The notes: generated from the sequence alone by a model not told the origin. Shown: positions 1 through 25,500, numbered from the stretch's first letter. The stretch: DNA of 33,873 bases from Thermoanaerobaculia bacterium (GCA_038245905.1 JBBRRY010000036.1:1-33873), one strand, 5' to 3'. Numbers and translations are program-made.

Positions 1-1
1 C

Positions 2-3000
2 TTCGCCGCCCTCCTCGCCGCCTCCGCGTCTCGCGCCGACGTGGTGGTCGTCGAGGCGGCTCCCGGCGGGGAAGCCGCAAGAGCGAAGCTGAAGGCGGGC
101 GACCGGCTCGTGTCCTGGCAGCGCGGAGCGTCGAAGAAGGCTGAGGCCGCGTCCGGCGCCTTCGCCGCTCCGTGGGACCTCGAAGAGCTGGAGGCTTCGG
201 AAGTCCCGCGCGGGCGGGTACGCGTGACCTTCGTGCGTTCGAGACGGACGTTCAGCGTCCGCCTCGGGCGCGGCGAGTGGCGGTTGACGGTGCGTCCGGA
301 CGCGGAGGGGCGCGACGCGGAGCTCGCGCGCACCCTGAGCCGGGCGGCGGCGGCCGCGGCGGCGGCCCGGCACGCCGAAGCGCTCGAGCTCTGGAAGGAT
401 GCCCTCTCGGCCGCGGAACGGCGGCACGACGCGCTTCTGCGCGCGCGCATCCTCGTCCTCGAGCCGCCCTCGTTCCGCGCGAACCGGCAGTTGCCGGCCG
501 CCGAGGCGGCGCTGCGCGAAGCGGTCGCGATCCGCGAGCGGACCGACCCGAGCGGTCCGGCCGCGGCCTCGGCGCTGACCCTGCTCGCGGGCCATCTCCG
601 GCAGAGCAAGCAGGATCGTGCGGCCGGCGAGGCGCTCGCGACGCGCGCCCTCGAGATCGCGCGGGAGGAGGCGTCGGGCTCCCTCGTCGAGTCCCGGGCG
701 TTACGGCAGCTCGGGAGCTTCGCGTGGGACCGCGGCCAGGTGGGAGAGTACCGGGCGCGGAACGAGGCGGCTCTCGCCCTCGCCCGGCGGCTCGCTCCGG
801 ACGGGATCGACACCGTTCAATGCCTGTCGAACGTCGCGTTCGCCCTGGGCGAGGCAGGCGACCTGCGGGGCTCCGAGCGGCTCCAGAAGGAGGCGCTCGC
901 GATCGCGCAGAAGCGGTTCCCGGAGGCTCCGGAGACCGGCCAGATCTGGAACGGCCTCGGCGTCCTCGCCCGGGAGCGGGGGGATCTCGTCGCGTCCGAC
1001 GAGAGGCTCCAGAAGGCCTACGAGATCTGGAGCCGGACGCTTCCCGGGACTCTGAGCGTCGCCGGCGTCCTGGCAAACCTCGCGAACAACGCCCTCGACC
1101 GCGGCGAGCTCGGCCTCGCAGAGGAGCGGCATCGCACGCTCCTCGCGATGCGCGAGGCGATCGCTCCGGAGGGGAACGACGTCGGGAGATCCTGCCAGTC
1201 GCTCGCCAACATCCTCAGGGTTCAGGGACGGCCTGTCGAGGCGACGGCGTTCGCCGAACGGGCCGTCGCGGTCGCGCGGCGGAACGCGCCCGGCGGCATC
1301 GCCGAGGCTTCCGCCCTCTGCGAGCTGGGCCGCGCGGACCTCGCCTCGGGCCGGCTCGAGGCCGCCGAAGAACATCTGCGCGCGGGGCTGGCGATCGCCG
1401 GAAAGGTCGCGCCGTTCGGAAGGGATGCGGCGGCCCTTCGCACGGCCCTCGCCGAGATCCTCATGGCGCGGGGTCGTCTGGAGGAGGCCGAGACGGTCGC
1501 CGCGGACGCCGTCGCGCGCCGCCGGTCCCAGCCGGGCACGATCTCGGAGGCCCAGGCTCTGCGGTTGCTCGCGAGCGTGCAGCGGGCCCGTGGGAAGCTC
1601 GACGAGGCTGAGGCGACCTACGGCCGCACGCTCGCCTCCCTCGAGACGCAGGCGGCGCGGATCGGCGGAGGCGAGGAGTCGGCGGCCGCTTTCTCGTCCC
1701 GCGCCGCGGACGCCTACCAGGACACGATCGACCTGCTCTTGTCGCGGGCGAAGAATGCCGATGCTCTCGCCGTTCTCGAGCGCTCCCGGGCGCGGCACTT
1801 TCTCGTGATAGTGAAGGCCCGGGAGAAGGCCGTGAGCCTGCGTCTGCCCGAGGGCATCGCGACGGAGCGCTCGGCCCTTTCGCGAGCCCAGGCGGACGCC
1901 GAGCGGCGCCTCGCGGCCCTCGACCCGGAGCGTGAGGCCGAGAGCGTCGCGGCACTCGAGGAGGAGCTGCGGGTCCTGCGCGGGCGCCGCGTGAGCCTCG
2001 ATGCCCGACTCGAGGCGTCGGATCCGGCTCTGGGGCCGGCGTTCGTCGCCTCCGGGACTCTCGACCTCGCAGGAATCCGCCGCGTGCTGCCGCGGGGCAC
2101 GCTTCTTCTCTCGTACACCGTCCTTCCGGCCCGTACGGTCCTGTTCGCGGTCCGCGCCGAAGGCGACGGCGAGGAGGGCGAGGCGGGGCTCGACGTCCTC
2201 TCGATCCCGGTGGCGTCCGACGCGCTCGCACGGGAAATCGGCGTCTTCCGCGGGCTGGTCGTCGCGGGCTCCGAGGGCGACGTCGCGGCCCCGGCGTTGC
2301 TCGAACAGGCGCGTCGCCTGCACGACCTCCTCGTGGCTCCGGCCGCCGGGCTCTTTGCGAGAGCGGCCCGTGTCCTCATCGCCGCCGACGGCCCCCTCCA
2401 GACGCTCCCGTTCGCCGCGCTGCGGGACGAAGAGCAGTGGCTCGCGGAAAAGAAGCCGATGAGCTTCGCGCCGTCCGCGTCCGCCTGGGCCTCGCTCCGC
2501 GGCCGCGCCGCCCGCCAAACCCGGTCCTCGGCCCGGCTCGTCGCGTTCGCGGACCCGACACTCCCCGGCCGGGCCGAGCCTGGCGGAGAGAAGGGGACGC
2601 GAGGCTCGTCCGAACGCGGCGGCGCGCCGCTGCTCCGCTACCGCCGGGGCCTTGCGCCGCTGCCGTACGCACGGGAGGAAGCGCGGGCCGTCGCGCGCGC
2701 GTGGAAGGGGCCATCGGCCGTCTTCGCGGGCGACGACGCGACGAAGGCGCGGGCGCTTGGCGTCGGAACGGGCACGCGCGTGCTGCATTTCGCGACGCAC
2801 GCCCTCGTGGACCGGCGCTTTCCTCTCGATTCCGGCCTCGCGCTCGCCTCGAACGGAGCCGACGCGACCGGAGAGGCGACCGGTCTCCTTCAGGCGTGGG
2901 AGGTCCTCGAGTCCATGAGGCTCGACGCTGATCTCGTAACGCTCTCCGGCTGCGAGACGGGGCTCGGCGCGGAAGGCACCGGAGAGGGGCTCGTCGGGCT

Positions 3001-3238
3001 CGTTCGCGCCTTCCAGATCGCCGGAGCGCGCTCGGTCGTCGCGTCGCTCTGGAGCGTCTCGGATCGCAGCACGCGGGACCTCATGATCCGCTTTTACGAA
3101 GCTCTCGGGCGCGGCGCGGCCAAGGACGAGGCCCTCGTCCAGGCCCAGCGTGCGCTCATCCGGGGAACCCCGGAAGGCCGGAACCTCGGCCATCCCCGTT
3201 TCTGGGCTGCCTTCGAGGTCTTCGGAGACGGGCGATGA
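2..3238 (+). CDS. Exported PDZ-TPR-CHAT (caspase/HetF-like) protease, 5'-truncated by the window edge
   Basis: The frame is open from base 2 (FAALLAASASRA-DVVVVE..., the tail of a signal peptide), upstream of the ORF-track start at 41. PDZ-like segment VVVEAAPGGEAARAKLKAGDRLVSW. Many TPRs (e.g. TGQIWNGLGVLARERGDL, VAGVLANLANNALDRGEL) and a coiled coil. CHAT motifs DGPLQTLPFAAL, VLHFATHA (His about 2798), LVTLSGCETG (Cys 2951), GARSVVASLWSV and HPRFWAAF. Confidence 0.92.
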   Translation, partial: FAALLAASASRADVVVVEAAPGGEAARAKLKAGDRLVSWQRGASKKAEAASGAFAAPWDLEELEASEVPRGRVRVTFVRSRRTFSVRLGRGEWRLTVRPDAEGRDAELARTLSRAAAAAAAARHAEALELWKDALSAAERRHDALLRARILVLEPPSFRANRQLPAAEAALREAVAIRERTDPSGPAAASALTLLAGHLRQSKQDRAAGEALATRALEIAREEASGSLVESRALRQLGSFAWDRGQVGEYRARNEAALALARRLAPDGIDTVQCLSNVAFALGEAGDLRGSERLQKEALAIAQKRFPEAPETGQIWNGLGVLARERGDLVASDERLQKAYEIWSRTLPGTLSVAGVLANLANNALDRGELGLAEERHRTLLAMREAIAPEGNDVGRSCQSLANILRVQGRPVEATAFAERAVAVARRNAPGGIAEASALCELGRADLASGRLEAAEEHLRAGLAIAGKVAPFGRDAAALRTALAEILMARGRLEEAETVAADAVARRRSQPGTISEAQALRLLASVQRARGKLDEAEATYGRTLASLETQAARIGGGEESAAAFSSRAADAYQDTIDLLLSRAKNADALAVLERSRARHFLVIVKAREKAVSLRLPEGIATERSALSRAQADAERRLAALDPEREAESVAALEEELRVLRGRRVSLDARLEASDPALGPAFVASGTLDLAGIRRVLPRGTLLLSYTVLPARTVLFAVRAEGDGEEGEAGLDVLSIPVASDALAREIGVFRGLVVAGSEGDVAAPALLEQARRLHDLLVAPAAGLFARAARVLIAADGPLQTLPFAALRDEEQWLAEKKPMSFAPSASAWASLRGRAARQTRSSARLVAFADPTLPGRAEPGGEKGTRGSSERGGAPLLRYRRGLAPLPYAREEARAVARAWKGPSAVFAGDDATKARALGVGTGTRVLHFATHALVDRRFPLDSGLALASNGADATGEATGLLQAWEVLESMRLDADLVTLSGCETGLGAEGTGEGLVGLVRAFQIAGARSVVASLWSVSDRSTRDLMIRFYEALGRGAAKDEALVQAQRALIRGTPEGRNLGHPRFWAAFEVFGDGR

Positions 3239-3747
3239 CGGTCGACGTCCCGTTCGCAGGCGACGTCGAGGACTTCCGCGAGGTCTTCCTCGAATACCAC
3301 CCGAGGTTGTTCCGGTACTTCCGGTCCCTGGGGTTCGCAGCGGAAGACGCCGACGATCTATGCCAGACGGCGCTTCTCAACGTCTACCGGGGGAGAGGAA
3401 AAGTGCGAGACGTCACGCTCTTCGCCCCCTGGGTTTACAGCGTCGCTCGAAACGCCGCGCGCGACGCCTGGCGCCGAAAAAAGGACGCCCGGGTCGAGGC
3501 GCTGGAAGATCGCGACGTCGAGGCTCCGGCCCCGTCGCCCGAGCGCGAGGCTGGGGACCGGGAAAGGCTCGACCGCGTTCGAGAGGGCCTCGTGGCGCTC
3601 CCGGCGCGCATGCGTGCCTGCTTCCTCCTGCGGGTTCAGGACGAACTTTCCTACGAGGAGATCGCCGGGCGGCTTTCGCTCTCGGCCGGCACCGTGAAGG
3701 TGCAGGTCTGGAACGCGAGGCGGCGGCTGCGCGAGGTGCTCCCATGA
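3235..3747 (+). CDS. ECF-family RNA polymerase sigma-70 factor
   Basis: 170 aa. Region 2: AEDADDLCQTALLNVY...FAPWVYSVARNAARD. Region 4: LPARMRACFLLR...LSYEEIAGRLSLSAGTVKVQVWNARRRLR. ATGA overlap with the CHAT gene. Confidence 0.95.
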   Translation: MTVDVPFAGDVEDFREVFLEYHPRLFRYFRSLGFAAEDADDLCQTALLNVYRGRGKVRDVTLFAPWVYSVARNAARDAWRRKKDARVEALEDRDVEAPAPSPEREAGDRERLDRVREGLVALPARMRACFLLRVQDELSYEEIAGRLSLSAGTVKVQVWNARRRLREVLP

Positions 3748-4379
3748 TTCCACCGAAATCCTCCGGGCCCCACCCGGATGCCGAGGACCTGTACCGCGCC
3801 CATGCCGCGCCGAACGCCGGGGACTCGGCTGCCGTCCTCGGACACGCGGCGATCTGCGCGCGCTGCAGTGAGGAACTCGTGGGGATCGAGGTGTTCGCGG
3901 CGAACCCACCGGACGTGTTCGGTGGCGCCGTTCGGCGGGCCGAGGCCGCTTGGGGGACCTTCGCGGGGAGGCCGGCCCGGCGCCCTGCGAGGGTCCCGAT
4001 GCCCGCCCTCGCGATCGCGGCCGCTCTTGTCCTTCTCGTCGGCGCAGCCCTCCTCGTCCGCCGCCCGCCGACCGACGTCGAGAGAGGCGACACCGTGACG
4101 GGTCTCCTGACGCCGGCCGGCGTTTTCGCGGCGCCCCCGGATGAGTTCCGTTTTCCGATCACGGGGGCCGCGAGAGTTCGCGTGAGCGTGTTCGACGCGG
4201 ACCGGTCCTACGTCTGGACGAGCCCCGCGGCTCCAGAGGGTCAGCCCGTTTCGTTTCCGCCCGAGGAGCGCGCGAAGCTCCGGCCGGGCGTTGTCTACAC
4301 GTGGGTCGTCCTCGGGGACGGCCGCACGCTTCCCGCGCGGACCTTCGAGATCCGCGCAGGCGGAGCTGCGACGCGGTGA
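3744..4379 (+). CDS. Zinc-binding (ZAS/zf-HC2) single-pass anti-sigma factor with a small extracytoplasmic domain
   Basis: ATG at 3744 overlaps the sigma stop (ATGA); this is the 3' part of track ORF 3150..4379. 211 aa. HPDAEDL...HAAICARC (HxxxCxxC), TM segment ALAIAAALVLLVGAALLV, then a beta-rich C-terminal domain. Confidence 0.85.
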   Translation: MIPPKSSGPHPDAEDLYRAHAAPNAGDSAAVLGHAAICARCSEELVGIEVFAANPPDVFGGAVRRAEAAWGTFAGRPARRPARVPMPALAIAAALVLLVGAALLVRRPPTDVERGDTVTGLLTPAGVFAAPPDEFRFPITGAARVRVSVFDADRSYVWTSPAAPEGQPVSFPPEERAKLRPGVVYTWVVLGDGRTLPARTFEIRAGGAATR

Positions 4380-4395: not shown

Positions 4396-5421
4396 TCAGC
4401 CGCGGGGTTTTCTCGCCGCGTCGAATGGCCGGCGAAACATTCCGAAGAGCTCGCGGCGCGAGACGGGCTTCGGCGGGTCCTCGCATGCTTGCGCGGCGGC
4501 CTCGGGCTGCTGGTACGCCCGGGCGGCCTCTGCAGGGAAGAGCCGGGCGCGCACGGTGTCCCAGACGATCTCGCCGAGGCCGAGCTGCGGCGAGAAGCCA
4601 AGCGTCTGCCAGGCCTTCTCCATGTCTGCGATCCGGGGCGTTCGCGCCGACGTCCCCTGCACGGCGATGTGGCACTCCTTGGCGGCGCGCACGGCGAGGG
4701 CGCGGACGACCTCGGACGGCTTCACGGCAAGGCCGAACCCGAGATTCACGATTTCGCCGATCGGCCGCTTGCGCAGGGCCATGAGGACACCGCGTACGAC
4801 GTCCTGAGGATGGACGAAGTCCCGGGGGGCGTCGTCGGCGAGGAAGACCTCCTCGCCCGCGAGGACTGCCTCGAGCGCGTCCTCGGGGAAGCGCGCGGGC
4901 CCGCCGCCAGGCCCGGCGACCGCGAAGACCCGCAGGATCACGAAGGGCAGGCCGGAGGCGAGGAACGCCTCCTCCTCGGCCGCTTTCGCGACGAGGTCGC
5001 GGTCCCCTTCGGGCTCGACGGGCTCGTCCTCGCGCGCGCGGAGATTCGCCTCGTCGCGCGGGCCATAGAGTGCCGCGTCCGAGAGGTGGACGAGCAAGCC
5101 GACGCCAGCCTGGCGGGACGCTTCGACGAGCGGCCCGAGGCCCGCCGCGTCGAGCGGAAGGCGCATCGCGTTCACGATCGCGGAGGGCCGGTGCTCGGCG
5201 AAGGCGTTTTCGAGGAACGCGGCGTCCGTCCCGTCTCCGCGCACGATCGTGATGCGTGGGTGACGCCCGAACGAGGCGGCGCGCTCCTCCTTGAGGGCGC
5301 GGCCGTCGCCCGCGTCGTCGAACGTGTCGAGCACGACGACGCCGTCGCCCGCGCCGAGAAGCTGCCGCGCGATTGCGGCGCCGAGAAAGCCCGCGCCGCC
5401 TGCGACGAGGACGAGACTCAC
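4396..5421 (-). CDS. NAD-dependent epimerase/dehydratase (extended SDR) family protein with a degenerate active site
   Basis: VLVAGGAGFLG Rossmann motif, RDFVHPQDVVRG and IVNLGFG. The YxxxK position reads DLVAK. GTGA overlap with the mlaD stop. Confidence 0.8.
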   Translation of the reverse strand: MSLVLVAGGAGFLGAAIARQLLGAGDGVVVLDTFDDAGDGRALKEERAASFGRHPRITIVRGDGTDAAFLENAFAEHRPSAIVNAMRLPLDAAGLGPLVEASRQAGVGLLVHLSDAALYGPRDEANLRAREDEPVEPEGDRDLVAKAAEEEAFLASGLPFVILRVFAVAGPGGGPARFPEDALEAVLAGEEVFLADDAPRDFVHPQDVVRGVLMALRKRPIGEIVNLGFGLAVKPSEVVRALAVRAAKECHIAVQGTSARTPRIADMEKAWQTLGFSPQLGLGEIVWDTVRARLFPAEAARAYQQPEAAAQACEDPPKPVSRRELFGMFRRPFDAARKPRG

Positions 5422-8268: not shown

Positions 8269-8303
8269 CGGGGCGGCGGCGTCCCGGCCCGGTCGTGCGC
8301 CCT

Positions 8304-9584
8304 TCACCAGCACCTCAGCGTGGCGGTCGAATGCATCAGCGCAAGGTACCTGTCGAGCGAACTCCCCGGGCCCGGATTGATTCTGCCGTCGAAGTTGATG
8401 GTGAAGCTCTGGTTCACCGTTGCGAGCCCGCCCGGACCGTTCTCCTCTGCGCGAACGCGGATCTGCTGCCTCAGGTCGGCGGGGGCGATCGTGTGAAAGA
8501 GGGTCCTTCCGGCCTGCGGAAAGAAAACCTCGAAGTGCGATTCGTAGGCCTGCGGCCCCAGGGTCACACTGAAGTGCGCATTGCCGTTGGCGTAGATCGT
8601 GACGCGCGCGAGCGTCAGCTGCACGCCGTTGCACTTGGCGGGCCCAAGGTCACGCCCGAAGTAGCCGGGAACGAAGGACACGCGGAAGGGAACGGCAACA
8701 GTCTGCTGCGGGGCGGACTGTCCCCTCCGGACGAACTCGAACGCAACGGCTCCGTCGAGAGGCGTCTTGTCCGTGTGGCCGCCCGTCCCCTCGACCGGAA
8801 CGGTGAATTCCTTCGTCTCGGACGCGTCGAGGCTCACGTTGCCATACGGCTTGACCTTGAGGCCCGGGGAGGCGGAGGGCCAGACGATCCGGCCGGACAC
8901 GTCCTCGCCGGTGCCCACGAGACGGACGACGAACTTCTGGACGGTCTCAAACGGGTCCGCGACCGAGAGGATGTCCTTCTCCGGCAGGATCAGGAGCGGC
9001 GACGTGCGCATGCCGTCAAACATCCCGCGAAGCGGGACGTTGAAGGCCCATGCTCCGTGGGGCCCGGGCCCCGTCACTTTCATCGTGGCGCTCTTGGGCC
9101 CCGCGGCCATCGTGAAGAGGTCGAAGTGCGGCTGGAAGACGATGTCGACCTCGATGGCCGTGTTCGGGGCGAGGCTCCACTGGAAGGGGCCCGACTGGCC
9201 GTCGGCGTAAGTCGTCCGCGCCTTGACGGACTTCATGCCGAATTGAACGACCGTCTGGCCGCCCGTCGACCCGCCGAGCTCGCGGTACTCCGCGACCCGG
9301 AACGGCCCGCGTGGGATCTCGACCGTCACGTATCCGGACGCGATCGTCGTGAGCGAGAGCGTGCGCTTCGCGCTTTCGCCGTTCCAGACGGAGCCGAAGT
9401 CCATCTGGTCGGGCGCATGAGACGGCGTGTTCAGTACGTCCGCGACGTGTATACGCGAGGCGGCTTGAGGGAGGGGCGTCGGGGTGGCCGGGACGATAGG
9501 CCCCTTCACGGCCGCCTTGTCGGCGCCGAAAAGCACCGCCGGAAGGAGGAGGACGAGCGCGAAGAGCCGGGTGCGGGATGTCAT
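8304..9584 (-). CDS. Secreted hypothetical protein with an ASH/choice-of-anchor-D-like Ig domain
   Basis: GGAGG precedes the ATG at 9584, which I prefer over the track start 9605. Signal peptide MTSRTRLFALVLLLPAVLFG-ADK and a Pro-rich linker. PDQMDFGSVWNGESAKRTLSL...LAPNTAIEVDIVFQP resembles the ASH/Ig-like motif. 426 aa. Confidence 0.7.
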   Translation of the reverse strand: MTSRTRLFALVLLLPAVLFGADKAAVKGPIVPATPTPLPQAASRIHVADVLNTPSHAPDQMDFGSVWNGESAKRTLSLTTIASGYVTVEIPRGPFRVAEYRELGGSTGGQTVVQFGMKSVKARTTYADGQSGPFQWSLAPNTAIEVDIVFQPHFDLFTMAAGPKSATMKVTGPGPHGAWAFNVPLRGMFDGMRTSPLLILPEKDILSVADPFETVQKFVVRLVGTGEDVSGRIVWPSASPGLKVKPYGNVSLDASETKEFTVPVEGTGGHTDKTPLDGAVAFEFVRRGQSAPQQTVAVPFRVSFVPGYFGRDLGPAKCNGVQLTLARVTIYANGNAHFSVTLGPQAYESHFEVFFPQAGRTLFHTIAPADLRQQIRVRAEENGPGGLATVNQSFTINFDGRINPGPGSSLDRYLALMHSTATLRCW

Positions 9585-9589
9585 GGCGG

Positions 9590-9662
9590 CCTCCAGACTC
9601 ACCACAGCTTGTGGCGTCCGACACTCGCTTTCAAGGAACGTTCATGGTCCTTGGGCGACAGT
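9590..9662 (-). promoter_or_regulatory. Two-hairpin structured 5' leader abutting the RBS of the 426-aa secreted protein
   Basis: On the minus strand, hairpin 1 is TCGC-c-CAAGGA/TCCTTG-aaa-GCGA (9623-9662) and hairpin 2 is CGGAC-g-CCACA/TGTGG-t-ga-GTCTG (9594-9620). Hairpin 2 ends on the first G of GGAGG. Confidence 0.35.
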
Positions 9663-9709
9663 TCGCGGTCCCGGGGCGCCATGCCTCTCCAACTCGCTAG
9701 ACTCGCGAC

Positions 9710-10438
9710 GTGCCATCTCGCCTCGTCGACCTCTTTGTCTCGGTCTGGAGCTGGGCAGTCATCGCGCTCACGGCGACCGCCTACAGCCTCCTCGCGATCC
9801 TCACGTCGTGGGTTCCGCCGCGCGGCCGGTTTTACCTCTTCTGGGCCCGTCTCTGGGCCCGGTCGATCCTGTTTCTGACCGGAGTTCCGGCCACGATCGA
9901 GACCGCGCACGAGGCCGCCGCCCTCCCGCAGGCGATTTACATGTCGAACCACGAGTCGGGAATCGACATCCTCCTTCTCCTCCTCGTCATTCCCCAGGAC
10001 GTGCGCTTCCTGGCGAAGCGCTCCCTGTTTTACGTGCCGTTCATGGGTTGGTCGATGTGGCTCGCCGGATTCGTGCCCGTCGACCGGCGGCGGACGGCGA
10101 AGGCACGGGAGGTCCTTTCCGGTCTGGACCGGTGCCTCGCGAAGGGGCTCTCCATTCTGATCTTTCCCGAAGGAACCCGCTCCCGCGACGGGAGCGTCGG
10201 GCCGTTCAAGAAATCGGGCTTCCTGACCGCACTGAAGTCGGGCCTGCCAATCGTGCCCGTGGGCGTCTCCGGGGCCCGGGCCGTCCTCGGGGCTCAGGGA
10301 ATGATCGTCCGGCAGGGCCCCGTCCGCGTTCGAGCTGGACGCCCGATTCCGACCGCGGGCCTGTCCGTGCATGCGCGCCGGGATCTCATGGAAAAGGTCC
10401 GGCGCGAGATTCTCCTCCTGCGCGGAGCGGCGGGTTGA
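9710..10438 (+). CDS. plsC: 1-acyl-sn-glycerol-3-phosphate acyltransferase
   Basis: SNHESGID (NHx4D), FLAKRSLF and IFPEGTRS. N-terminal TM. TAGACT lies 6 nt upstream of the GTG. Confidence 0.9.
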   Translation: MPSRLVDLFVSVWSWAVIALTATAYSLLAILTSWVPPRGRFYLFWARLWARSILFLTGVPATIETAHEAAALPQAIYMSNHESGIDILLLLLVIPQDVRFLAKRSLFYVPFMGWSMWLAGFVPVDRRRTAKAREVLSGLDRCLAKGLSILIFPEGTRSRDGSVGPFKKSGFLTALKSGLPIVPVGVSGARAVLGAQGMIVRQGPVRVRAGRPIPTAGLSVHARRDLMEKVRREILLLRGAAG

Positions 10439-22031: not shown

Positions 22032-22612
22032 AAGTACACGTTGACACCCGCCGCGAGGCGGATGTAGTCGGCCTTCGGCTGGTTGGGCAGCAACTTGATC
22101 GCCGCAACGTCGAGGAAGACGTAGCGTCCGTCGAGAAAGACGGACGTCCGGAAGCTGGTCCTCACGTCAACGCCCGCCCCGGCGTGGAGCGCGAAGAGGT
22201 TCTCGGCCGGGTAAGACGTGTCCGCGTTCGGTCCGACGCCCTTCGGCTTCGCCCATGTGTATCCGAGCCCGGCGAGCGCGTAGGGCTGTACCCGCCCGCT
22301 GTGGAGGAAGAACACGAGGAAAGACGCCGCGACCGGGAGCTCGTCGACCGTGAGGACGCGCACGCCGCCTTCCGTGAACGTGTCGCGCCGGTATCCGGCG
22401 GACACCTCGAGGCCGAGGCCGCCGGTGATGCGCAGTCGCGCGTGGACGCCGCCTGTCGCGCTGCCCGACTCCGCATTGCGCCCTTTCGCGTATCCCGCGT
22501 CCGCGCCGTAGCCCGTGCCCGGGTCGGAAAACGACTGTGCGCGCGCGGGAAGCGTCGCGGCGAGAGTGGCGACAAGAGCCGCGGCGAGGGGAATCCGGGC
22601 GAGCGGGCGCAT
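22028..22612 (-). CDS. Outer-membrane beta-barrel protein (OmpA/OmpW-like)
   Basis: Signal peptide ending PARA-QSF, amphipathic beta strands (VQPYALAGLGY, LHAGAGVDV) and a C-terminal VNVYF beta-signal. Start is 22612 or 22618. Confidence 0.85.
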   Translation of the reverse strand: MRPLARIPLAAALVATLAATLPARAQSFSDPGTGYGADAGYAKGRNAESGSATGGVHARLRITGGLGLEVSAGYRRDTFTEGGVRVLTVDELPVAASFLVFFLHSGRVQPYALAGLGYTWAKPKGVGPNADTSYPAENLFALHAGAGVDVRTSFRTSVFLDGRYVFLDVAAIKLLPNQPKADYIRLAAGVNVYF

Positions 22613-22689
22613 CGGCATGGGACTGTACCGCGCCCGCCGCCGGCCCGCAGCGACGCGCCAATCATGGAATCGCTCATAATCGTCCACCC

Positions 22690-25500
22690 GTGGCGTCCCG
22701 AAACTGGAAAGACGAGCTTCCGACGCTGATTCTCGCGATCGCGGCCCAGTTCGGGCTCGTGCGCGCGGTGGACTGGGCGCGTGCCCACACGGACACGAGC
22801 GACCTCGCCCGCCGGTTGGTGGAAGAGCGCTTCTATTTCGCGCCCTACGTCGGCTCCGTGATCGTCGTCTTGATCCTGGGCCGGCTCATGGTGAAGGCTC
22901 TGAACCTGCGCGGCATCGCGATCGGCGAGTGGCTGCGCTCCTCGCTTCTCGTCGTCATGGTGGGGGTCGGCTTCCTCGTGGCAGCGCACCTCGACCAGAT
23001 TCTCGGCGTCCTCGCGCTCCTCGCGCACCAGCCTGCTCTCCAGGCCGCGTCGCGCGATCTCGGCGCCTCGCCGTTCTTCCAGCTCCTGGGGCGTACGGCC
23101 ACGCTGCGCTTCGCGATCGACATCGTGGGGCTCTTCGTCTGTCTCTTCGCGATCCGCCTGGGGCAGCCGGCGCATCCCGAGGTCTCCGCCGCTCTCGGCT
23201 TCCAGTCCGTCAAGGACTGGACCCGGGCCGGAGACGCGTACCTGAAAGCGGGCGACACGAAGCGCGCGCGCCGGATGTTCAAGAAGGCGCGCGCATGGCC
23301 GCGGCTGGCTGCTCTCGAGCAGCGCGACGGGAAACACCGCGAGGCGGCGCGCCTCTACGAAGAGGCGGGTGACGCTTACGCGTGGGAGGCCTCCCGCGCC
23401 TGGGAGGCCGCCGGCGAAGCGGCGGCCGCGGGGGAGTATGGCAAGAAGGCGCTTCTCCTTGCGCGGACGGCATCCCGCTGGGACCGGCTCGCGGAGATCG
23501 CAGAGACCCTCGGGGATCATGTGTCGCTCGCCGAGGCCTGCCGGCGCCTGGCCGAGGCGACACCGTCCGGGCCGGTGAAGGCGGCGCTCTGGAAGAGGGC
23601 CGCAGACGCCTATCGCAGCGCCGGGAAGCCGGGGGAAGCGGCCGAGGCGTACCGGAACGCGCAGGAGCACCTGCTTGCGGGCGAGCTGTTCGTGGAGAGC
23701 GGCCGCCCGGCAGAGGCCATTCAGTCGTTCGAACGAAGCGGCGCCCTGACGAAGGCGGCTCTCGCGGCCGCGCGGGCCGGCGACGAGAAGGGCGCCCAGG
23801 AGCTCCTGGCGCGCGAGGCCGAAGGCCGTGGTGACCTCGTGTCCGCCGCGGAAGCATGGGGACGGGCCGGACAGGCGCTGCGCGCGGCCGGCCTCTTCGA
23901 GAAGGCCGGAGATTTCGTCCGCGCAGCCGACGCATGGAAGGACGCGGGCCGGCTCGAGAAGGCCGCGCCCCTGTACCAGCGAGGAGGCAAACGCGCGGCG
24001 GCGGCGGAGGCCTTCACGGCTGCGGGCCAGGTCGAGAAGGCGGCCGCTCTCTATAGCGAGCTCAAGGACTACGACAAGGCGGCGGCCCTGTTTCGCGGCG
24101 CTGGACGACTCCCCGCGGCCGCGGCGGCGCTTCAGGCCGGCGGCAAGTTCGACGACGCCGCCCAGCTCTTTTTGCGCACGGGGCGCGGTCTCGAGGCCGC
24201 GCGGTGCGCGCTCCTTGGCGGGCATCGCGAGCAGGCGTGGGAGTACCTCACCGGAGTGCCGCGCAGCGAACCCGGTCTCGCCGAAGTGTTTCAACAGCTC
24301 GCGCGCGCCCACATGGCGGCGGGCGAGAACAAGGACGCCGTGCACGTGCTGCGCGCGCTGGTCGGCCGCGGGAAGGTCGAGTCCGAGAATCTTCCGCTGC
24401 ACATGACGCTCCTCGAGGCCCTTCGCGCGTCCGGAGATTCCGGAGAAGGCGTGGAGCTCGGACGAATCGCGGCGTTCGATCCTTCGGTGCTCGAGGGTGC
24501 GGCGGCGCATTCGGTGGATTTCGCGGACGTGGGGCTCGACGACGCCATGCCCGCCGCGCTCATCCGGACGCCGGCCGTGCACAAGTCGGGGCCCTATGCC
24601 TCCTTCGCGCGGCCCGCGGCGCCGCCACCCGTTCAGCCTCCGCCCCTCAGGATCTCGACCCCCGCGGCGCCTCCGCCGGCGAAGCCGACGGTGGGCTTCG
24701 GCCTGCCCGAGACGCCCGAGTCGCGCTACGAGATCCTCTCCGAGCTCGGTCGCGGCGGGATGGGCGTCGTGCACAAGGCGCTCGACAAGAAGCTCGACCG
24801 GCACGTCGCGCTCAAGATCCTGCCCTGGCAGCTTCGCGGTGACGAGACGGCGATGCGCTACTTCAAACGCGAGGCTCGGGCCATCGCGGCGCTCAAGCAT
24901 CCGAACATCGTCGCGCTCTACGACTACGGCGAGGGCTTCGGAAGCCTGTACCTCGCGATGGAGTATCTCGAGGGGCCGAACCTGCAGAAGCTCATCAAGA
25001 AGGAGACCGAGCGGGTGCAAAAGAACTGGCGGAGCTGGTTCGTGCAGGCCACGCGGGGGATCGCCGCGGCCCACGCGAAGGGCATCCTGCACCGGGACCT
25101 CAAACCCGCGAATCTCATCCTCGACGAGCACGGGACGCTTCGGATTCTCGATTTCGGCCTTGCCCTTCCCCAGGCCGATGCGGGAGGCACGTCGAAGCTC
25201 ATCGGCAGTCCGGCCTTCTTCCCGCCCGAGGTCCTTCGCGGGGAGATGCCGAGCCCCGCCTCCGACGTCTACTCGCTCGGCGCCGCCTTCTACACGCTCG
25301 CCACGGGGCGGTGGCCCTACGTGGGCGACGACGTCCTGGTGGCCCGGCTCGAGCGCGATCCCGACGATCCGCGTCCCTACGCGCCGTTTCTGAAAGAGGA
25401 AGAGGTTGCCATCCTCATGAAATCGCTCGCGCGGCACCGCCCGGACCGCTATCCGGACGGCGGGGAGCTCCTGGCGGCGCTCCTCTCGCTCGAAGCGTAG
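22690..25500 (+). CDS. Membrane-anchored Ser/Thr (Hanks-type) kinase with SNAP/clathrin-like helical repeats
   Basis: Probable GTG start at 22690 after CATAAT. About four N-terminal TMs, many AAxx(Y/F)xxAG repeats and a Pro-rich linker. Kinase motifs LGRGGMG, VALK, HRDLKPAN, DFG, GSPAFFPPE and DVYSLG. Confidence 0.9.
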   Translation: MASRNWKDELPTLILAIAAQFGLVRAVDWARAHTDTSDLARRLVEERFYFAPYVGSVIVVLILGRLMVKALNLRGIAIGEWLRSSLLVVMVGVGFLVAAHLDQILGVLALLAHQPALQAASRDLGASPFFQLLGRTATLRFAIDIVGLFVCLFAIRLGQPAHPEVSAALGFQSVKDWTRAGDAYLKAGDTKRARRMFKKARAWPRLAALEQRDGKHREAARLYEEAGDAYAWEASRAWEAAGEAAAAGEYGKKALLLARTASRWDRLAEIAETLGDHVSLAEACRRLAEATPSGPVKAALWKRAADAYRSAGKPGEAAEAYRNAQEHLLAGELFVESGRPAEAIQSFERSGALTKAALAAARAGDEKGAQELLAREAEGRGDLVSAAEAWGRAGQALRAAGLFEKAGDFVRAADAWKDAGRLEKAAPLYQRGGKRAAAAEAFTAAGQVEKAAALYSELKDYDKAAALFRGAGRLPAAAAALQAGGKFDDAAQLFLRTGRGLEAARCALLGGHREQAWEYLTGVPRSEPGLAEVFQQLARAHMAAGENKDAVHVLRALVGRGKVESENLPLHMTLLEALRASGDSGEGVELGRIAAFDPSVLEGAAAHSVDFADVGLDDAMPAALIRTPAVHKSGPYASFARPAAPPPVQPPPLRISTPAAPPPAKPTVGFGLPETPESRYEILSELGRGGMGVVHKALDKKLDRHVALKILPWQLRGDETAMRYFKREARAIAALKHPNIVALYDYGEGFGSLYLAMEYLEGPNLQKLIKKETERVQKNWRSWFVQATRGIAAAHAKGILHRDLKPANLILDEHGTLRILDFGLALPQADAGGTSKLIGSPAFFPPEVLRGEMPSPASDVYSLGAAFYTLATGRWPYVGDDVLVARLERDPDDPRPYAPFLKEEEVAILMKSLARHRPDRYPDGGELLAALLSLEA

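Follow-up and report, generated by a model that had tools for sequence, protein, structure and literature searches.

Release of a sigma factor in the RseA/DegS/RseP and RsiW/PrsW systems begins when a signal-gated cut is made at site 1, on the outer side of the membrane, and continues with a site-2 cut by an M50 protease, and DegS is itself gated by a PDZ domain. Here we analyze three genes at positions 2–4379 of a stretch of 33,873 nucleotides from Thermoanaerobaculia bacterium (GCA_038245905.1 JBBRRY010000036.1:1-33873; this whole stretch is called the window below), which lie in one orientation and encode a PDZ-TPR-CHAT protein, a sigma factor of the extracytoplasmic function (ECF) type and a zinc-type anti-sigma factor. 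We consider it somewhat likelier to be right than wrong that this trio forms a three-component signalling module spanning the cytoplasmic membrane, in which the protease cuts the anti-sigma factor at site 1. The mechanism proposed shares its logic with the RseA and RsiW systems; the candidate site-1 enzyme, however, is a clan CD cysteine protease, neither a serine protease nor a metalloprotease, is encoded within the sigma operon itself and has a dedicated ectodomain as its predicted docking site. Compared with DegS in particular, a PDZ-like domain is found in both proteins, whereas the catalytic domain here is CHAT and not a trypsin-fold serine protease; the window protease may act as DegS does without belonging to its family.

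The closest described system is DdvA/DdvS of Myxococcus xanthus (PMC11506125; PDB 8ROT and 8RW5; a further paper is PMC6061681), in which an ECF sigma factor is paired with an anti-sigma factor that fuses a zinc-binding anti-sigma (ZAS) domain, a transmembrane (TM) helix, TPR and CHAT in one chain, with the CHAT part periplasmic and the system independent of CRISPR. In the parts of PMC11506125 drawn on here and below, the authors propose, but do not demonstrate, that CHAT acts as the site-1 protease ahead of RseP; DdvA is reported to form a dimeric, arrow-shaped assembly, with a CHAT domain that is without the three-helix motif of the substrate pocket. Both DdvA/DdvS and the window trio combine an ECF sigma factor, a single-pass zinc-type anti-sigma factor and an extracytoplasmic TPR-CHAT part with a His-Cys dyad, and neither depends on CRISPR guidance. 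They differ in that the anti-sigma factor is fused to the protease in DdvA, whereas here the two are separate open reading frames (ORFs) with the sigma gene between them; in addition, the window anti-sigma factor has an FN3-like ectodomain of its own, the window protease has an N-terminal PDZ domain, its CHAT domain carries three helices (residues 739–787) at the predicted docking site that may correspond to the motif lacking in DdvA, no defence island stands beside the trio, and sequence identity is only about 16% (Foldseek). The sequence-only reading of this DNA had stated that no characterised system with this architecture was known; DdvA/DdvS is a characterised precedent with the same site-1 proposal (PMC11506125), and the claim has to be withdrawn. 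The trio is probably a split, widespread acidobacterial variant of a DdvA/DdvS-type system, with a module that is real and conserved and a mechanism that is plausible.

Two other groups of systems bear comparison, through papers that are likewise cited here for part of their content. In the type III-E craspase, which comprises Csx29, Csx30 and a sigma factor, a cut made by the TPR-CHAT protease Csx29 frees the sigma factor (PMC10028731), and Csx29 and the window protease share the TPR-CHAT fold (8eey_B, E 1.4e-12); Csx29, however, is cytoplasmic, RNA-guided and bound to Cas7-11, whereas the window protease has a predicted signal peptide. No Cas family was found among the 13 window ORFs scanned, the search for Cas7-11 having been confined to these. 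Kaur et al. (2021) described neighbourhoods of caspase, ECF sigma factor and DUF1822 and a model of activation by autopeptidase action (PMC8195603), and these share with the window trio the linkage of a caspase-fold protease to an ECF sigma factor; they are conflict modules of the EACC2/TRADD-N type, and neither a ZAS-TM-beta-sandwich anti-sigma factor nor an exported PDZ-TPR-CHAT protein figures in the sections of that paper drawn on. CHAT, caspase and PF12770 go unmentioned in the main text of the paper that reclassified the ECF factors (PMC7826278), although such contexts may be listed in the supplements to it or in table S7 of the DdvA paper. Our literature search found no paper on a split, exported CHAT protein with an ECF/anti-sigma pair and none on a CHAT domain in Acidobacteria.

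The three genes and their products

Contig C36 begins with the window and belongs to the 3.8 Mb genome (113 contigs, 96% complete) of a soil acidobacterium, whose named relatives are Thermoanaerobaculia metagenome-assembled genomes of the phylum Acidobacteriota. The protease ORF is 1078 amino acids (aa) long and open at its 5' end, the sigma ORF 170 aa and the anti-sigma ORF 211 aa; one ATGA overlap joins the protease stop to the sigma start (3235–3238) and a second joins the sigma stop to the anti-sigma start (3744–3747). The G+C content at the trio is about 70–75% and shadow ORFs are many, the three frames named being those with family matches. Protease residues are counted from window codon 1 (F), full-length numbering being seven higher. 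The features are as follows, with the basis of each in brackets (pLDDT, predicted local distance difference test).

2–3238, + strand: PDZ-TPR-CHAT protease gene, with its first 7 codons on contig C16:125-145 (minus strand)
2–37, + strand: tail of the putative signal peptide (FAALLAASASRA), presumably cleaved between ASRA and D (judged by eye)
41–298, + strand: PDZ-like domain, residues 14–99 (AlphaFold2 secondary structure, pLDDT 87–97; PDZ_6 in homologues)
311–1654, + strand: TPR superhelix, residues 104–551 (Pfam, AlphaFold2)
1673–2086, + strand: long-helix region between TPR and CHAT, residues 558–695 (AlphaFold2)
2099–3229, + strand: CHAT caspase-like domain, residues 700–1076 (Pfam, AlphaFold2, complex prediction)
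within 2099–3229, + strand: CHAT helices 739–787, predicted docking surface (AlphaFold2, complex prediction)
2798–2800, + strand: presumed catalytic His933 (invariant in the alignment)
2951–2953, + strand: presumed catalytic Cys984 (invariant in the alignment)
3235–3747, + strand: ECF (group 4) sigma gene (Pfam, TIGR02937)
3744–4379, + strand: single-pass anti-sigma gene, 211 aa (alignment, AlphaFold2)
3843–3866, + strand: HxxxCxxC zinc motif (H34, C38, C41), inside the three-helix domain 13–53
3999–4058, + strand: anti-sigma TM helix, residues 86–105 (AlphaFold2)
4068–4094, + strand: flexible juxtamembrane linker, residues 109–117, pLDDT <50 (AlphaFold2)
4083–4085, + strand: invariant Arg114, candidate site-1 cleavage point, the cleavage itself being conjectural (alignment)
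4104–4358, + strand: FN3/Ig-like beta-sandwich ectodomain, residues 121–205 (AlphaFold2, fold search)

Pfam places CHAT (PF12770) on protease residues 768–1076 with an E-value of 2.1e-64 and 218.2 bits against a curated cut-off of 24, covering profile positions 2–289 of 289, and several TPR families match as well, TPR_12 over four stretches (E 1.1e-34). H933, C984 and H929 are invariant in an alignment of 66 homologues, and we take H933 and C984 to be the catalytic dyad from their positions in the motifs HFATHA and LSGCETG. The DdvA dyad, H862/C907, is the analogue for this assignment (PMC11506125). The AlphaFold2 model built on the 66-homologue alignment (pLDDT 89.5, predicted TM-score 0.89) runs from an alpha/beta segment at 14–99 through the TPR superhelix (104–551) and the long helices (558–695) to CHAT at 700–1075. 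A Foldseek search of the PDB with this model ranks the periplasmic portion of DdvA first (8rw5, E 3.4e-15; 8rot_A, E 3.3e-14; 16% identity), ahead of human separase and the Csx29 structure mentioned above. A sequence search of solved structures with the CHAT part gave no match, and the whole-protein profile returned TPR proteins only among the best 60 of its 66 rows. The window's own N-terminal domain scores below threshold against PDZ_6 (E 0.004–0.005); we accept it as a PDZ domain because 17 of 30 homologous N-domains match that family, the best at 2.7e-7. Many ECF-linked homologues are without the PDZ domain, their matches beginning near query residue 200.

The missing start of the protease gene was recovered from a second contig. 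Window positions 1–125 recur with 100% identity at C16:1-125 (minus strand), and extension into C16 sets MRPRSLL before the window's first codons (FAALLAASASRADVVVV), with an in-frame stop 11 codons upstream and no alternative start between. The recovered N-terminus reads MRPRSLLFAALLAASASRA followed by D, of which the window alone holds only the signal peptide tail (FAALLAASASRA). The join is backed by synteny: two relatives carry, upstream of the protease gene, homologues of the genes that follow on C16, with order and orientation unchanged. Judged by eye, the N-terminus is a Sec signal peptide, with a positive n-region, a hydrophobic core and a cleavage site at ASRA before D, and three homologues in the genus start alike, with hydrophobic N-termini; because of this recovered N-terminus we regard the protease as very probably exported. 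As a separate observation, window position 1 and the end of contig G004:C45 (L017/L022) are breaks in two independent assemblies that fall within a few codons of each other, in the region coding for the signal peptide, and the contig ends in the present genome (C36/C16) share 125 identical bases.

By its family matches the second gene encodes an ordinary ECF sigma factor, a 170-aa protein with regions 2 and 4 only (Pfam Sigma70_r2 and Sigma70_r4_2) that scores 92.6 bits against TIGR02937 (cut-off 42.9). In the anti-sigma factor the only invariant positions among 33 homologues, with identity down to 15–29%, are H34, C38, C41, R114, P124 and W187; the upstream ligand of ZAS domains is represented by H10, which is conserved within the order, with a Cys near the same position in distant members (by eye). 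The AlphaFold2 model (pLDDT 83.8) consists of a three-helix bundle (13–53), a helix (61–73), the TM helix (86–105), a disordered linker (109–117, pLDDT <50) and a very confidently predicted beta sandwich (121–205), with R114 in the flexible linker directly outside the membrane, between the TM helix and the sandwich. Fold searches with this protein yielded nothing but generic sandwiches, of FN3, Ig and CopC-like type (best Z 8.5; E 1.8e-3 by Foldseek), which give no functional assignment, and a profile search of solved structures gave chance-level rows only.

The sequence-only reading had described three genes chained by these ATGA overlaps, a PDZ-TPR-CHAT protein with an intact His/Cys dyad (Cys codon at 2951), an ECF sigma factor and an HxxxCxxC anti-sigma factor with one TM helix and an outside domain. 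All of this is borne out: the overlaps can be read directly in the DNA, CHAT and TPR are found by Pfam, the PDZ domain is recognised through homologues and the AlphaFold2 model, the dyad is invariant with its Cys codon at 2951–2953, the sigma families match, and the zinc motif is invariant in the 33 homologues, with the TM helix and beta sandwich present in the model.

Linkage of the three genes in the Acidobacteriota

Conservation of the trio was examined first among close relatives, in 24 other genomes of the genus and 16 genomes from two other families of the order. The anti-sigma factor is present in 5 of the 24 and 4 of the 16 (two of these four, G030 and G025 with loci L019 and L021, are unpublished). 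In all five genus genomes the order is protease, sigma factor, anti-sigma factor, one being interrupted by a contig end, and the other four genomes each have a gene for a TPR or TPR-CHAT protein no more than about 6 kb away, in varying arrangements.

A wider survey seeded with the protease took one genome per species and yielded 78 CHAT loci, which were scored with iterated hidden Markov models of the sigma and anti-sigma factors (ASF, anti-sigma factor). An ECF gene lies within 8 kb at 52 of the 78 and directly adjacent at 38, in the following arrangements.

CHAT>ECF>ASF, adjacent: 17 loci
CHAT> <ASF<ECF, convergent, adjacent: 11 loci
ECF>ASF>CHAT, adjacent: 10 loci
same strand, gap of 0.8–7 kb: 9 loci
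convergent with a gap: 3 loci
other arrangements: 2 loci
no ECF within the flank: 26 loci, 4 of them with <2 kb of flank

The anti-sigma family is matched at 46 of the 52 ECF-bearing loci, and 30 of these anti-sigma factors match over their full length, ectodomain included. The carriers include Thermoanaerobaculia, Aminicenantes, Vicinamibacterales and Pyrinomonadaceae, with a few Myxococcota and Gammaproteobacteria. Two loci deserve separate mention: at L077 a sigma-54 activator stands between protease and sigma gene, and in the gap-type locus L025 no Pfam family is matched by the large ORF that separates CHAT from ECF.

The converse survey, seeded with the anti-sigma factor, searched 400 Acidobacteriota genomes (the tallies include three unpublished ones, none of which is among the loci examined), and the best 40 full-length matches were examined with up to 8 kb on each side, or less at contig ends. 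An adjacent ECF gene is found at 37 of these 40 loci and a CHAT domain in the flank at 30; at six (L101, L102, L104, L106, L107 and L108) two CHAT genes flank a single ECF/anti-sigma pair. The two surveys overlap in genomes, and the relatives are not independent. As for the background, the window genome holds 17 ECF-like matches and two CHAT genes in its 3.8 Mb, and its single anti-sigma factor of this family is beside the window CHAT gene; near the second CHAT gene, on C8, there is neither an ECF gene nor an anti-sigma factor of this family. Taken as gene neighbourhoods, these results support a trio that is conserved and specifically linked.

Fused forms also occur. A rough check for HxxxCxxC in the first 250 residues found it in none of the 78 CHAT ORFs, and three acidobacterial single ORFs of 1113–1209 aa have ZAS and TM at the N-terminus and CHAT at the C-terminus, which is the architecture of DdvA: L140 (G365:C363), L141 (G364:C25) and L142 (G306:C1). 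In the sections of PMC11506125 drawn on, DdvA-like fused proteins are reported only from Myxococcota and one Comamonas. Judging from the genomes surveyed, coupling of TPR-CHAT to an ECF/anti-sigma pair is common across the Acidobacteriota, in split and fused forms; it is no myxobacterial rarity, and accordingly points to a general way in which soil bacteria sense the outside.

These arrangements bear on the idea that the protease is a mere output of the sigma factor, a co-transcribed and exported effector with no action on the anti-sigma factor. Overlapping stop and start codons do show co-transcription, and ECF operons often hold members of their own regulon. The linkage persists, however, over three or four gene orders, including a convergent one for which no shared transcript is possible; fused forms exist; and the interface described in the next section is predicted with controls at 0.00. 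We regard a mere output as very improbable.

Predicted docking and the site-1 reading

The protease (residues 196–1078) and the anti-sigma factor (104–211) were submitted to one complex prediction, each with its own unpaired alignment. The ipSAE score was 0.67 (0.67, 0.71 and 0.65 in the separate runs), against 0.00 for the best of three controls; 58 of 80 solved complexes and 2 of 110 mismatched pairs attained that mark. The runs have at least 85% of their contacts in common, with a partner pLDDT of at least 77. Confident contacts fall on the protease at 743–768, 885, 938, 985 and 1017–1020 and on the anti-sigma factor at 112–113, 141–159 and 186–199. Residues 938 and 985 flank the dyad, 985 adjoining Cys984, and 112–113 precede Arg114. 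The model supports an interaction in which the anti-sigma ectodomain binds CHAT, and a substrate-like pose is plausible.

In the mechanism that we propose, the ECF sigma factor would be held in the cytoplasm by the zinc-binding N-terminal domain of the anti-sigma factor, which would present outside the membrane a flexible linker with the invariant Arg and then a small beta sandwich. The Sec-exported PDZ-TPR-CHAT protease would dock on this ectodomain through its CHAT helices and would become active in response to an outside signal, sensed either through its PDZ and TPR domains or through an alteration of the docked complex. Once active, the protease would make the site-1 cut in the linker, at Arg114 or close to it, after which an M50-family metalloprotease would make the site-2 cut in the membrane and free the sigma factor; M50 homologues are present in the window genome as site-2 candidates. 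The analysis itself shows the make-up of the domains, the conserved linkage of the genes, a predicted signal for export and a predicted, supported interface; the cleavage and where it falls, the triggering signal, the site-2 cut and the regulon are inferred from regulated intramembrane proteolysis and from DdvA.

Because of export, conserved linkage and predicted docking, we infer that a dedicated site-1 role is the best reading of the protease. This role had been put forward in the sequence-only reading, which suggested recovering the upstream sequence, surveying neighbourhoods for CHAT, ECF and ZAS genes and modelling CHAT with the anti-sigma ectodomain. The signal-peptide-like N-terminus recovered from C16 (judged by eye), the tallies of ECF near 52 of 78 CHAT loci and CHAT near 30 of 40 anti-sigma loci, and the complex score against its controls have all gone its way, and what it loses is the lack of precedent, DdvA/DdvS having the same proposal.

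Predicted docking and conserved linkage would fit equally well a protease that serves as a co-sensor or shield, as RseB does for RseA, blocking another site-1 or site-2 protease until a signal comes and then letting go or destroying itself, its catalysis being directed against its own chain or against other proteins of the envelope. The behaviour of DdvA lends this some weight, in that its bulky TPR-CHAT part blocks RseP, truncated forms are degraded, and dyad mutants are like the wild type in resting cells (PMC11506125). Invariance of the dyad in 66 homologues argues, on the other side, that catalysis is under selection, and the invariant Arg lies in a disordered linker where its neighbours are among the confident contacts along with protease residue 985. 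A shield seems to us unlikely, if not strikingly so.

Several further points weigh against the site-1 reading. The contact residues are listed per protein, with 112–113 not paired to particular partners, and the complex score is the model's own confidence. The docking helices 743–768 vary among genus homologues whose anti-sigma interface residues are near-identical. The anti-sigma factor matches no Pfam or NCBIfam family, even at E-values up to 10. In DdvA, the one relative studied so far, mutation of the dyad was without effect in unstimulated cells, and autoproteolysis was not seen in the experiments drawn on here (PMC11506125). At 10 of the 40 anti-sigma loci there is no CHAT domain in the flank, and because 26 of the 78 CHAT loci have no ECF gene nearby, proteases of this family function in the absence of a sigma factor too. 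Finally, the protease and the anti-sigma factor are 83% and 52% identical to those of G004, and 49% and 76% identical to those of G021; such discordant identities across the operon argue against tight pairwise co-evolution and suggest recombination inside the operon. The operon is a mosaic: in a comparison of the window with L013, L014 and L017, identity to G024 is 99% over the final 89 residues of the protease, 89% for the sigma factor and 78% for the anti-sigma factor, a pattern suggestive of recombination close to the protease gene's 3' end.

Should the more general bait and protease reading given below be right, ECF signalling would have in the clan CD proteases its third major class of site-1 enzyme, and the split form would allow a first test in trans of a mechanism only proposed for DdvA. 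Enzyme and presumed substrate can here be expressed, mutated and mixed separately, and both their interface and the cut site, Arg114, are predicted.

Sigma-less relatives and surroundings of the locus

At 10 of the 26 sigma-less CHAT loci, a beta sandwich like that of the anti-sigma factor is encoded beside CHAT within a secreted protein. Nine of the ten copies lie just upstream on the same strand, and that of L043 lies downstream on the opposite strand; the domain is fused in frame before PDZ-TPR-CHAT at L032 (7182–11261) and L042 (294–5024) and is encoded by a separate upstream gene at L037, L041 and L044–L048. In all ten, R-[GSA] precedes the beta domain with about the spacing of R114-G115. 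The secreted partner, of about 300 aa, has a signal peptide, a conserved N-terminal domain, the beta sandwich and a helical tail and is without a Pfam family; a Pfam scan likewise found no family for the secreted beta-domain partner of L048 or the N-terminal part of the L032 protein.

With no sigma factor to regulate at these loci and the beta domain predicted to bind beside the active site, the flow of control might be reversed: the sandwich would be a securin-like inhibitor or prodomain, and the anti-sigma factor would tether and silence a protease whose real substrates are elsewhere in the envelope. This would leave unexplained why the beta domain has repeatedly been joined to ZAS and paired with ECF in several gene orders. 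It is also compatible with the site-1 reading, since cutting off an inhibitor that is the anti-sigma ectodomain would fire the sigma factor, and as an explanation in its own right we think it quite unlikely. A more general version of the site-1 reading, which we offer tentatively and with somewhat less than even confidence, is a widespread acidobacterial bait and protease sensor, in which an exported caspase-like protease docked on an FN3-like bait would cut the Arg linker when triggered; in the anti-sigma factor this would be a dedicated site-1 event, and in the sigma-less paralogues it would activate the protease or free some other output.

At four of four genus loci (L002, on C16 146–272, minus strand; L014; L015; L016), the otherwise diverged region upstream of the protease gene has kept a box, RRGAC-N19-CATAGA (core GGCATAGA), about 75–95 nt before the start codon; it is a candidate promoter. 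A genome-wide search for the box gave nine matches, about the number expected by chance (hand estimate), the closest lying inside an open frame and a second being ambiguous; no regulon could be named. The divergent gene farther upstream (C16:273-1103, + strand, L002) encodes a protein of 276 aa that starts like a signal peptide and matches no Pfam family; it was considered as a member of the system and set aside, a homologue standing beside the trio in one other genome only.

Downstream of the trio, no defence genes were seen among the window neighbours at 4396–29642, and two large ORFs in this region (8295–9878 and 22162–25437) match no Pfam family. The neighbours are otherwise housekeeping genes, comprising an NAD-dependent epimerase, an M13 peptidase, a GAF histidine kinase, CcmF and CcmB of cytochrome c maturation, and MlaD together with ORFs that resemble, by eye, its ABC ATPase and permease (Mla-like lipid transport).

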